From Escherichia coli (GTDB taxonomy: Bacteria > Pseudomonadota > Gammaproteobacteria > Enterobacterales > Enterobacteriaceae): a DNA stretch of 64,000 nt. The notes below the pieces were generated by a model. The model was not told the DNA's origin and did no database searches. It saw only the letters and a list, made by a program, of their open reading frames with translations. The position numbers and the translations under genes were made by a program. Where the stretch lies: assembly GCF_003334305.1 (NCBI RefSeq), contig NZ_QOWS01000006.1. The stretch is one strand, 5' to 3'. Positions 38,498-44,064 of this stretch are shown one piece after another (the stretch's first letter is position 1; each line of letters begins with the position of its first letter).

Positions 38498-39178
<681 letters not shown>

Positions 39179-39239
39179 CAACAATAAACCTTTACTTCAT
39201 TTTATTAACTCCGCAACGCGGGGCGTTTGAGATTTTATT

Positions 39240-41945
39240 ATGCTAATCAAATTGTTAACTAAAGTTTTCGGTAGTCGTAACGATCGCACCCTGCGCCGGA
39301 TGCGCAAAGTGGTCAACATCATCAATGCCATGGAACCGGAGATGGAAAAACTCTCCGACGAAGAACTGAAAGGGAAAACCGCAGAGTTTCGTGCACGTCT
39401 GGAAAAAGGCGAAGTGCTGGAAAATCTGATCCCGGAAGCTTTCGCCGTGGTACGTGAGGCAAGTAAGCGCGTCTTTGGTATGCGTCACTTCGACGTTCAG
39501 TTACTCGGCGGTATGGTTCTTAACGAACGCTGCATCGCCGAAATGCGTACCGGTGAAGGTAAAACCCTGACCGCAACGCTGCCTGCTTACCTGAACGCAC
39601 TAACCGGTAAAGGCGTGCACGTAGTTACCGTCAACGACTACCTGGCGCAACGTGACGCCGAAAACAACCGTCCGCTGTTTGAATTCCTTGGCCTGACTGT
39701 CGGTATCAACCTGCCGGGCATGCCAGCACCGGCAAAGCGCGAAGCTTACGCATCTGACATCACTTACGGTACGAACAACGAATACGGCTTTGACTACCTG
39801 CGCGACAATATGGCGTTCAGCCCTGAAGAACGTGTACAGCGTAAACTGCACTATGCGCTGGTGGACGAAGTGGACTCCATCCTGATCGATGAAGCGCGTA
39901 CACCGCTGATCATTTCCGGCCCGGCAGAAGACAGCTCGGAAATGTATAAACGCGTGAATAAAATTATTCCGCACCTGATCCGTCAGGAAAAAGAAGACTC
40001 CGAAACCTTCCAGGGCGAAGGCCACTTCTCGGTGGACGAAAAATCTCGCCAGGTGAACCTGACCGAACGTGGTCTGGTGCTGATTGAAGAACTGCTGGTG
40101 AAAGAGGGCATCATGGATGAAGGGGAGTCTCTGTACTCTCCGGCCAACATCATGCTGATGCACCACGTAACGGCGGCGCTGCGCGCTCATGCGCTGTTTA
40201 CCCGCGACGTCGACTACATCGTTAAAGATGGTGAAGTTATCATCGTTGACGAACACACCGGTCGTACCATGCAGGGCCGTCGCTGGTCCGATGGTCTGCA
40301 CCAGGCTGTGGAAGCGAAAGAAGGTGTGCAGATCCAGAACGAAAACCAAACGCTGGCTTCGATCACCTTCCAGAACTACTTCCGTCTGTATGAAAAACTG
40401 GCGGGGATGACCGGTACTGCTGATACCGAAGCTTTCGAATTTAGCTCCATCTACAAGCTGGATACCGTCGTTGTTCCGACCAACCGTCCAATGATTCGTA
40501 AAGATCTGCCGGACCTGGTCTACATGACTGAAGCGGAAAAAATTCAGGCGATCATTGAAGATATCAAAGAACGTACTGCGAAAGGCCAGCCGGTGCTGGT
40601 GGGTACTATCTCCATCGAAAAATCGGAGCTGGTGTCAAACGAACTGACCAAAGCCGGTATTAAGCACAACGTCCTGAACGCCAAATTCCACGCCAACGAA
40701 GCGGCGATTGTTGCTCAGGCAGGTTATCCGGCTGCGGTGACTATCGCGACCAATATGGCGGGTCGTGGTACAGATATTGTGCTCGGTGGTAGCTGGCAGG
40801 CAGAAGTTGCCGCGCTGGAAAATCCGACCGTAGAGCAAATTGAAAAAATTAAAGCCGACTGGCAGGTACGTCACGATGCGGTACTGGAAGCAGGTGGCCT
40901 GCATATCATCGGTACCGAGCGTCACGAATCCCGTCGTATCGATAACCAGTTGCGCGGTCGTTCTGGTCGTCAGGGGGATGCTGGTTCTTCCCGTTTCTAC
41001 CTGTCGATGGAAGATGCGCTGATGCGTATTTTTGCTTCCGACCGAGTATCCGGCATGATGCGTAAACTGGGTATGAAGCCAGGCGAAGCCATTGAACACC
41101 CGTGGGTGACTAAAGCGATTGCCAACGCCCAGCGTAAAGTTGAAAGCCGTAACTTCGACATTCGTAAGCAACTGCTGGAATATGATGACGTGGCTAACGA
41201 TCAGCGTCGCGCCATTTACTCCCAGCGTAACGAACTGCTGGATGTCAGCGATGTGAGCGAAACCATCAACAGCATTCGTGAAGATGTGTTCAAAGCGACC
41301 ATTGATGCCTACATTCCGCCACAGTCACTGGAAGAAATGTGGGATATTCCGGGGCTGCAGGAACGTCTGAAGAACGATTTCGACCTCGATTTGCCAATTG
41401 CCGAGTGGCTGGATAAAGAACCAGAACTGCATGAAGAGACGCTGCGTGAGCGAATTCTGGCGCAGTCCATCGAAGTGTATCAGCGTAAAGAAGAAGTGGT
41501 TGGTGCTGAGATGATGCGTCACTTCGAGAAAGGCGTCATGCTGCAAACGCTTGACTCCCTGTGGAAAGAGCACCTGGCAGCGATGGACTATCTGCGTCAG
41601 GGTATCCACCTGCGTGGCTATGCACAGAAAGATCCGAAGCAGGAATACAAACGTGAATCGTTCTCCATGTTTGCAGCGATGCTGGAGTCGTTAAAATATG
41701 AAGTTATCAGCACGCTGAGCAAAGTCCAGGTACGTATGCCTGAAGAGGTTGAGGAGCTGGAACAACAGCGTCGTATGGAAGCCGAGCGTTTAGCGCAAAT
41801 GCAGCAGCTTAGCCATCAGGATGACGACTCTGCAGCCGCAGCTGCACTGGCGGCGCAAACCGGTGAGCGCAAAGTAGGACGTAACGATCCTTGCCCGTGC
41901 GGTTCTGGTAAAAAATACAAGCAGTGCCATGGTCGCCTGCAATAA
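39240..41945 (+). CDS. secA: Preprotein translocase ATPase SecA
   Basis: 901 aa; [47 protein letters not shown]...; C-terminal zinc-binding [14 protein letters not shown]. Confidence 0.98.
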
Positions 41946-41962
41946 AAGCTAACAGTTGAAGT

Positions 41963-41991
41963 AAAAGGCGCAGGATTCTGCGCCTTTTTTA
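41963..41991 (+). terminator. Intrinsic terminator-like hairpin after secA, upstream of mutT
   Basis: ggcgcag-gattc-tgcgcc followed by a T6 run, 14 nt before the mutT ATG. Confidence 0.65.
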
Positions 41992-42004
41992 TAGGTTTAA
42001 GACA

Positions 42005-42480
<476 letters not shown>

Positions 42481-42493
42481 CATCAGACAAATG

Positions 42494-42691
42494 TCACTGC
42501 TTTGGCTCTTCGCTCCAGTCATCGCTTTCGGAAAGATCGCCACTGCTGGGGATTCGTTTTTCTTCAGCAGCCCATTCTCCGAGGTCGATCAGCTGACAAC
42601 GTTTGGAGCAAAATGGCCGAAACGGGCTGATTTCACCCCACACCACCGTTTTCCCGCAGGTTGGGCAATTCACCGTAATAGTTTCTGACAT
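42494..42691 (-). CDS. yacG: DNA gyrase inhibitor YacG (zinc-finger protein)
   Basis: [50 protein letters not shown]... (C4 zinc finger CPTC...CSKRC). The ORF track offers a start 2 codons upstream (42697); either is possible. Confidence 0.88.
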
Positions 42692-42700
42692 TTTCACTCC

Positions 42701-43444
42701 TTAGCAACAGGCCAGTTCGAAATCCAGACGTTCCGGTACCTGTCCGTTTTCAGTGTCCAGCGGCATAAAACGAATGGCAAAACGGCTCTTATGTCCGGAA
42801 ATTTGCGGATAAAGCTGTGAATCGAGCGACAGATTCAGGCGCAGCAAGTCGGCATCGCCACCGTTATCCTGATAAAAACCATTCAGGCTGGTTTGTTTAC
42901 GGAAGGGGGCCGACTGGCGAATTAAATCCAGCACCATGGTAAGTGCCTGGGTGAGCGGGTTCAGGCTGGCAATCCAGGTTTCTACCTGGCTGTCGCGCTG
43001 CGCCTGGGGTAGATGCAGCCAAATGTGCAATGTAGGTAAATCAAAGCTGCAACAGCCGCCTGGGATGCTCAGTCGCTGACGCACCAGAGCAATCAAACGA
43101 TCTTCACGCAGAAATTGCCCGATACGCGGCGCGGAAATTAATACGCTCCCCGCCGCTTTTAACTGCTGAATTAATGCTTCAATACGGCTCTGGTCCACGC
43201 CAGGCACGCCAATCCAGGTCTGGAGTTTACGTTGCTGCCGGTCAAGTTCTTTCAACAGCTCAGTGCGGACTTCGCCGCGCTCGAAAACATCCAGTAATTC
43301 ACTGACATTACGGAAGAAATGCAGCGCGCCAGCGTGGTCAACGATGGGTAAATTAACGGTGAGTTGCTGAATCAAAAACTCAATGCGCAGCCATGTACGC
43401 ATTTTTTCATTTAGTGGATGTTCAAAAAGGACCTGGGTCTGCAT
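42701..43444 (-). CDS. zapD: Cell division factor ZapD (YacF)
   Basis: 247 aa; [57 protein letters not shown]... Confidence 0.93.
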
Positions 43445-44064
43445 TACGGTTTTTCCTGTGAGACAAACTGCGACGCAAGCTGCAAATAGTGTGCGTGCAG
43501 GCGGGCAACATCCGATGCGATAGCATCCGGTGCGCCGTTATTATCAATGACGTCATCTGCCACGGCAAGGCGGGCTTCGCGCGTTGCCTGAGCAGCAAGG
43601 ATTTGTTCGACATGCTCGCGAGTTACATCATCGCGCTGCATGGTGCGCTTAAGTTGCGTTTCTGGGCTGACATCCACCACCAGCACTCGATTCGCTTTTT
43701 TATACAGTGAGTTTTCTACCAGCAATGGCACAACCCACAGTACATAGGGGGAAGTAGCTTGCTGGATCTGGTGTTGCGTCTCTTGCTGAATCAGCGGATG
43801 CAGCAGGGCGTTAAGCCAGTTTTTCTCTTCCGGGTTGGCGAAGATCCGCTCGCGCAAGGCCCGGCGCTGCAATGTTCCATCAGCAGCAATCATGTTAGCG
43901 CCAAAGTGATCAGCAATGGCATGTAGCGCAGGTGCACCTGGTTCAACCACCTGACGCGCAATAATATCGGCATCAATGACGTTAATTCCGAGATCAGCAA
44001 ACGCATTGGCAACGGTACTCTTGCCACTGCCAATGCCTCCCGTTAAGGCAACTATATACCTCAT
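43444..44064 (-). CDS. coaE: Dephospho-CoA kinase CoaE
   Basis: 206 aa; P-loop [38 protein letters not shown]...; overlaps zapD start by 1 nt. Confidence 0.95.

Follow-up and report, generated by a model that had tools for sequence, protein, structure and literature searches.

A conserved hairpin and U-tract between secA and mutT of Escherichia coli: probably a leaky intrinsic terminator inside the secM-secA-mutT operon

Between the stop codon of secA and the start codon of mutT in Escherichia coli there is a short GC-rich hairpin followed by a U-tract. We believe that this element, at the end of secA, is probably a constitutive intrinsic terminator of incomplete efficiency, which passes a small fraction of secM-secA transcription into mutT and whose terminated product is the RNA known as STnc40. 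The finding mainly confirms existing annotation, namely STnc40, the mutT attenuator of RegulonDB and the secM-secA-mutT operon; a mildly interesting addition is the strictness with which both the stem and its spacing from the mutT start are conserved across the Enterobacteriaceae. The comparison suggests that the leak rate itself may be under tight selection. Coordinates given below are positions in the window, by which we mean the whole stretch of 64,000 nucleotides analysed (contig NZ_QOWS01000006.1 of assembly GCF_003334305.1), unless MG1655 is named; an MG1655 coordinate equals the window coordinate plus 69039.

The surroundings of the hairpin in the window are the lpxC-secM-secA-mutT-yacG-zapD-coaE cluster of E. 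coli. On the + strand, secA (39240-41945, 901 aa, stop codon TAA at 41943-41945) was identified from the list of open reading frames, from 100% identity to the annotated E. coli secA and from the K-12 annotation; mutT (42005-42394, + strand, 129 aa), which encodes the 8-oxo-dGTP diphosphatase, was identified from the same list and from annotation, with the Pfam NUDIX domain present in its homologues. The 701 nt of the secA/mutT junction are 100% identical to several E. coli chromosomes and are found as a single copy, with annotated secA and mutT, in 5425 of 5426 complete genomes. In K-12 MG1655 the two genes occupy 108279-110984 (secA) and 111044-111433 (mutT), and the annotation places no feature within the 59-nt spacer that separates them; this spacer differs from that of the window by one base, which is upstream of the hairpin, the hairpin itself being identical. 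In a paper of 2025 (PMC11742677) the genes secM, secA and mutT, downstream of the lpxC terminator, are taken together as a single operon; a literature text search for secA-mutT operon phrases returned no match.

Two side observations concern the other end of mutT. The Rfam family naRNA4 (RF02564, a REP/BIME-type nucleoid-associated RNA) matches both strands at 42394-42471, the + strand with 78.4 bits and the minus strand with 52.9 bits; it begins at the final base of the mutT stop codon and lies in the convergent mutT/yacG spacer. The E. coli-like MutT clusters of the protein database mostly contain proteins of 132 aa, while the protein of the window and that of K-12 have 129 aa. No in-frame start codon for mutT is present upstream of 42005, so the difference is presumably C-terminal, beside the REP element.

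Read on the + strand from the secA stop codon, the junction begins with a 17-nt spacer (41946-41962), the sequence of which is not conserved (column entropy 1.2-1.9 bits) and the length of which is. It is followed by the A-tract AAAA (41963-41966), which could form base pairs with the first four residues of the U-tract and which is a T-run in the minus-strand reading. The terminator stem consists of the 5' arm GGCGCAG (41967-41973), assigned from sequence and fold, and the 3' arm CTGCGCC (41978-41984), assigned from sequence and from the comparison of 75 junctions described below; the tetraloop GATT between them (41974-41977) is fixed in length at 4 nt and free in sequence. The U-tract TTTTTT (41985-41990, MG1655 111024-111029) is the predicted site of transcript release. 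The last 14 nt before mutT, ATAGGTTTAAGACA (41991-42004), carry the weak SD-like purines of this gene, AGG at 41993-41995 and AAGA at 41999-42002. The original prediction had placed the element at 41963-42004, with the T-run ending 14 nt before the mutT ATG, and both the coordinates and the distance proved exact to the base.

The stem has 7 bp (six G-C and one A-U) with four further A-U pairs possible, and a loop of 4 nt, within the dimensions expected of an intrinsic terminator (at least 5 GC-rich bp, loop of 3-8 nt); the U-rich tract UUUUUUAU adjoins the 3' side of the stem, as in such terminators. The free energy of the 30-nt element is -17.0 kcal/mol against -4.8 +/- 1.8 kcal/mol for dinucleotide shuffles (z = -6.6, none of 200 shuffles being as good), that of the core 18-nt hairpin is -12.6 kcal/mol, and the hairpin is also the centroid structure in 59 nt of context. 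Hairpins with a T-run were scored with a formula of the d'Aubenton-Carafa type, used here for a relative ranking only. Of the 197 such sites on the two strands of the 64-kb window, the secA-mutT hairpin comes fifth with d = 35.3, a value like that of clear operon-end terminators, whereas the lpxC terminator at 38505 reaches no more than d = 1.7. A scan for a consensus terminator pattern returned eight weak candidates, with 6.4 expected, and the secA-mutT hairpin was not among them. This absence is likely to be an artefact of the scan, in which extension of the stem through A/U pairs consumes the T-run. Terminators with an upstream A-tract can be lost in the scan when the stem extends into the T-run.

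That a hairpin plus T-run stands upstream of mutT, as originally claimed, is thus borne out by the fold (z = -6.6) and by its conservation across 75 species, which rules out chance as its source. The hairpin had also been called strong; this holds as a sequence prediction (d = 35 on the relative scale, fifth of 197) but has no counterpart among the 3' ends in the Term-seq lists of Adams et al. 2021. Two condition lists of that study, which hold thresholded calls only, give no + strand end near MG1655 111029, a weak negative: the + strand ends listed are at 107551 (the lpxC terminator), at 107811 (inside secM) and next at 118766. The lpxC terminator, which looks weaker than the secA-mutT hairpin, was called in these lists. 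The end absent from them at 111029 could be due to a scarce transcript, to fast decay from the 3' end or to poor efficiency of termination in the cell. The supplements of the SMRT-Cappable-seq and TERMITe 2025 studies contain no mutT or secA entries.

A MutT query yielded 80 loci, one per species, 74 of which have secA directly upstream; with the window these make 75 junctions. The 5' arm is unchanged in 74 of them (GGCGCAG alone in 71, with an extra preceding G in three) and reads GGCGCGG, with a G·U pair, in the remaining one; the 3' arm is CTGCGCC, again in 74 of the 75, and CTGCGCT, also G·U, in one. Six T make up the U-tract in 71 junctions and TTTTC in four. The A-tract is AAAA in 47/75 and TAAA in 11/75, its two inner A-U pairs being always paired, and the loop, 4 nt throughout, takes 17 different sequences. 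Accordingly, column entropy is about zero in the arms and the U-tract against 1.5-2 bits in the flanks. In the pair count 96% of cells are paired, and the inner nine pairs are free of mismatches, the only departures being G·U. Spacing is conserved as well: the stop codon is 18-23 nt from the core stem in 71/75 junctions, the U-tract is 13-15 nt from the mutT start in 63/75, and an SD-like GGA (in ATGGA) directly past the U-tract is kept in most genera. The hairpin is under strong purifying selection, and the total invariance of its stem is more than a generic terminator needs. Within the 75 Enterobacteriaceae junctions there are no compensatory changes and no covariation in the stem, so that the comparative argument for the predicted structure in this family is one of conservation. 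Each of the two stem variants gives a G·U pair in RNA of the + strand and would give A·C in that of the minus strand, which is weakly consistent, as two events, with selection acting on the + strand RNA.

In a few junctions the spacer has been enlarged by insertions. Two subspecies of Salmonella enterica (L007, L008) and Citrobacter sedlakii (L032) have secA-mutT spacers of 151 and 101 nt, in which a REP-like palindromic insert separates the hairpin from the secA stop codon; in all three the hairpin itself and the spacing from it to mutT remain as elsewhere. A Buttiauxella metagenome-assembled genome (L048) has a 233-nt spacer with two copies of the hairpin AAAGGCGCAGCTTGCTGCGCCTTTT, one on each side of an insert of about 150 nt that has an inverted repeat of its own. 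An insertion event in which the terminator was the duplicated target would give this picture, as would an assembly artefact.

Beyond the family the picture changes from conservation of sequence to conservation of position. Representatives of MutT at 43-60% identity, taken from a 50%-identity representative set, gave seven distinct junctions with secA upstream. In five of these, at 29-109 nt from the start of mutT, a hairpin with a U-tract is present that has a wholly different stem sequence. The other two lack a hairpin; one of them has a spacer of 17 nt, and one comes from a genome of 1.37 Mb. The Rfam model of STnc40 matched none of the seven. The unrelated hairpins in five of the seven junctions indicate that the terminator keeps its place even though its sequence is replaced over time; such positional conservation supports a structural function, presumably that of a terminator, which has been maintained in evolution. 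The fixed sequence and the placement against the mutT ribosome-binding site are found only in the Enterobacteriaceae. As a separate observation, the distant junction with the 17-nt spacer (L085) is accompanied by a match to the sRNA GlmZ/SraJ (61.7 bits, 1859-2066) just downstream of mutT, where yacG-zapD-coaE would be.

A further comparison is offered by species in which mutT has moved. In three Atlantibacter (L061, L070, L076) and in L030, labelled C. freundii M-21, mutT follows yggN at a distance of 12 nt (about 770-1900); the gene order is trmB-yggL-yggN-mutT, there is no hairpin, and the MutT orthologue is 78-80% identical. The hairpin did not accompany mutT to its place behind yggN, which suggests that it belongs to the 3' end of secA. 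In K-12 trmB adjoins mutY, and mutT would then be near mutY in these four loci. The MutT of L030 falls in a protein cluster named Atlantibacter sp., and this locus may be a mislabelled Atlantibacter.

The element has been described before under two names. A cmscan search finds Rfam STnc40 (RF02057) at 41921-41990 on the + strand, covering the last 25 nt of secA, the spacer, the hairpin and the U-tract; the match covers the whole model (1-70 of 70) at 81.7 bits (E = 2.6e-15), above the gathering score of 45 bits, and ends exactly on the last U of the U-tract, which makes the element a member of this family. Elsewhere the family scores 77.9 bits in Klebsiella, 64 in Cedecea and 60.1 in both Salmonella and Buttiauxella. 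The supplement of Sittka et al. 2008 places STnc40 of Salmonella in the secA/mutT spacer and on the strand of both genes, and its location in the window is the same. That supplement assigns it to class V, the candidates that Pfeiffer et al. 2007 had predicted before, and gives 0 reads for it in the control library as well as in the Hfq co-IP library; the entry "np" marks it as not probed. Matches to "STnc40" in the main text of Sittka et al. 2008 were discarded, being word-start matches to STnc400; a whole-word search of the supplement gave the true entry. Smirnov et al. 2017 (PMC5391140) list STnc40 among ProQ-associated sRNAs and call it a "hypothetical mutT attenuator", and Table S1 of Naville & Gautheret 2010 has a "mutT attenuator (E. 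coli)", indicated in RegulonDB. Both the hairpin and its interpretation in terms of read-through are therefore already in the literature, as predictions.

It was originally claimed that there is no room for a separate promoter between the hairpin and mutT and that mutT hence depends on read-through from secA or on a promoter inside the secA 3' end. The first claim stands: the gap of 14 nt is partly taken up by the SD-like GGA/AGG, contains no -10/-35 pair and cannot hold a sigma-70 promoter together with a leader, so mutT is almost certainly transcribed through the hairpin. Dependence on read-through is likewise upheld by the lack of promoter space, by the gap of 13-15 nt in 63/75 junctions and by the agreement of the attenuator and operon labels in the literature. 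The promoter inside secA does not survive as an alternative, since transcripts from any promoter upstream of 41963 must pass the hairpin and would still need read-through, and no conserved promoter was found in the secA 3' end (see below).

From these data we infer partial termination at the hairpin, read-through as the source of mutT mRNA and a constitutive level of that read-through. A polymerase transcribing secM-secA would make the GC-rich 7-bp hairpin and six U, at which most complexes would release; a minority would read through into mutT, whose weak ribosome-binding site is directly past the U-tract. The hairpin would thereby act as a fixed leaky valve in secM-secA-mutT, keeping MutT low relative to SecA with no separate mutT promoter, and the terminated transcripts would leave a stable 3' fragment, the one catalogued as STnc40 and reported to be associated with ProQ. 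MutT removes 8-oxo-dGTP, and cells with too little of it are strong mutators. Whatever sets the level of MutT matters for the mutation rate; here this is apparently a simple leaky terminator after the highly expressed secA.

A side observation concerns the read-through transcript, in which the U-tract (41985-41991) can pair weakly with AUGAAAAA (42005-42012), that is, with the mutT start and two Lys codons. This weak A-U helix replaces the pairing with the A-tract in both the MFE and the centroid fold, and it might lower mutT translation slightly.

A regulated attenuator, in which read-through is switched by some signal, for instance oxidative stress, an sRNA, a protein or the state of secA translation, is in our opinion unlikely. 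The labels "mutT attenuator" in RegulonDB and "hypothetical mutT attenuator" in PMC5391140 speak for it, but are themselves computational or hypothetical; the same paper reports the association with ProQ. What distinguishes an attenuator is present only in part: there is a terminator upstream of the gene, and there is no antiterminator, leader peptide or sensor domain. A stretch of 130 nt with the U-tract as its 3' end was folded: the MFE and the centroid structure both retain the hairpin, the upstream part has no more structure than shuffles have (z = -1.26), and a competing antiterminator fold is seen for neither arm. An antiterminator was rejected on the basis of this fold, and the intact hairpin, together with the flanks, where the 17-21 nt upstream and also the loop are unconstrained, argues against a classical attenuator of the antiterminator type. 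Coupling to secA translation is also hard to envisage, since at 18-23 nt from stop codon to core stem a terminating ribosome should, by our estimate from known ribosome footprint sizes, be too far away to cover the 5' arm.

There remains the invariance of the stem, which goes beyond what hairpin stability demands and could reflect a sequence-specific binding factor. GGCGCAG/CTGCGCC is frozen despite a substitution-saturated loop and flanks, and recognition by sequence could therefore apply. We give little credence to the idea that the stem is recognised by its sequence as well, for example by ProQ or another factor, and works as a tunable valve, or that the released STnc40 fragment is functional. 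If it were true, the hairpin would couple the dosage of MutT, hence the rate of A:T to C:G mutation, to a cellular signal.

That the main role is played by STnc40 as an sRNA, trans-acting or protein-sponging, released from the 3' end of secA and stabilised by ProQ, with control of mutT being incidental, we regard as quite improbable. Terminator hairpins at mRNA 3' ends are typical ligands of ProQ, which counts for this possibility, as do the existence of an Rfam sRNA family and the listing among ProQ-associated sRNAs (PMC5391140). However, outside the coding sequence only 41946-41962 is single-stranded, and this stretch lacks conservation (entropy 1.2-1.9 bits in the 75 species), so that a conserved single-stranded seed is missing. 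The Salmonella candidate is of bioinformatic origin, with 0 cDNA reads in both libraries and no Northern probing (Sittka et al. 2008), and the E. coli Term-seq lists of Adams et al. 2021 call no 3' end here.

Very improbable, to our mind, is a main role on the minus strand, where a bidirectional terminator would halt antisense transcription from yacG-zapD-coaE before it reaches secA. Read on this strand, the hairpin is followed by TTTTAC and ranks 11th of the 197 candidates (d = 14.9, again a relative measure). Supplementary file 2 of Adams et al. 2021 has an entry at MG1655 111226 (window 42187) for a 3' end on the minus strand, antisense to mutT, which, as far as this list goes, means that antisense transcription from the yacG side enters mutT. 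Nevertheless, the U-tract of the + strand is longer and better conserved (six T in 71/75) than the A-tract that would serve the minus strand (AAAA in 47/75), and both stem variants, which are G·U on the + strand, would be A·C mismatches on the minus strand.

We hardly credit, finally, a promoter of mutT's own, either overlapping the hairpin, with a near-leaderless mRNA, or located in the secA 3' end and supplying most of the mRNA: a promoter upstream of 41963 would still need read-through, the 14-nt gap has no -10/-35 pair, the promoter-like matches are fewer than chance would give, and the synonymous sites at both candidates vary freely. The candidates are TTTGCA-16-TAAAAT at 41670-41697, the sole sigma-70-like match in 38500-43500 (one against 3.5 expected by chance), and TGnTAAAAA at 41906-41914, just upstream of the Rfam 5' boundary. 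Across the final 330 codons of secA the normalised synonymous-site entropy is flat, 0.45-0.67 per 90-nt bin with 0.57 overall and 0.58 in the last bin; it is 0.72 at the first candidate and 0.55 just upstream of the Rfam boundary. This flat profile led us to reject a conserved element at the 3' end of secA, whether a promoter or an RNA element. A sigma-28 SELEX site reported in mid-secA (MG1655 109556) might also be cited in favour of a separate promoter; it is 1.5 kb upstream and has no bearing on the hairpin.

It remains to place the probable leaky terminator among known systems. To STnc40 (Rfam RF02057) it corresponds in full: the flanking genes on the + strand are shared, the hairpin and the U-tract are identical to the consensus of the model, and there is no structural difference; the 5' part of the E. 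coli match is the coding end of secA, where Salmonella has a REP-like insert. The label "sRNA" in Salmonella goes back to the prediction noted above (0 reads and not probed, as of 2008). With the mutT attenuator of RegulonDB and the classical attenuators (trp, his, T-box and riboswitch leaders) it has in common that a terminator directly precedes the gene under control. It differs from the classical ones in having no leader peptide, no antiterminator/anti-antiterminator and no conserved sensor sequence, and also in location, since those are found in a 5' leader, whereas the secA-mutT hairpin is at the end of a long coding gene. The ProQ-bound 3'-end hairpins and the sRNAs derived from 3' UTRs likewise have a terminator hairpin at the mRNA 3' end, and the listing with ProQ is common to them; unlike 3' UTR-derived sRNAs, STnc40 has no conserved seed, and the Hfq co-IP library of Salmonella gave 0 reads for it.

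The closest likeness is to terminators proper. A canonical Rho-independent terminator has the same GC-rich stem, tetraloop, U6 and upstream A-tract, about 20 nt past the stop codon; a stem frozen family-wide and free of compensatory changes is an unusually strict version of it. Leaky terminators within operons, which fix how strongly adjacent genes are expressed relative to each other, are likewise followed by a co-oriented gene with no space for a promoter of its own, and for mutT the leak is what we predict.
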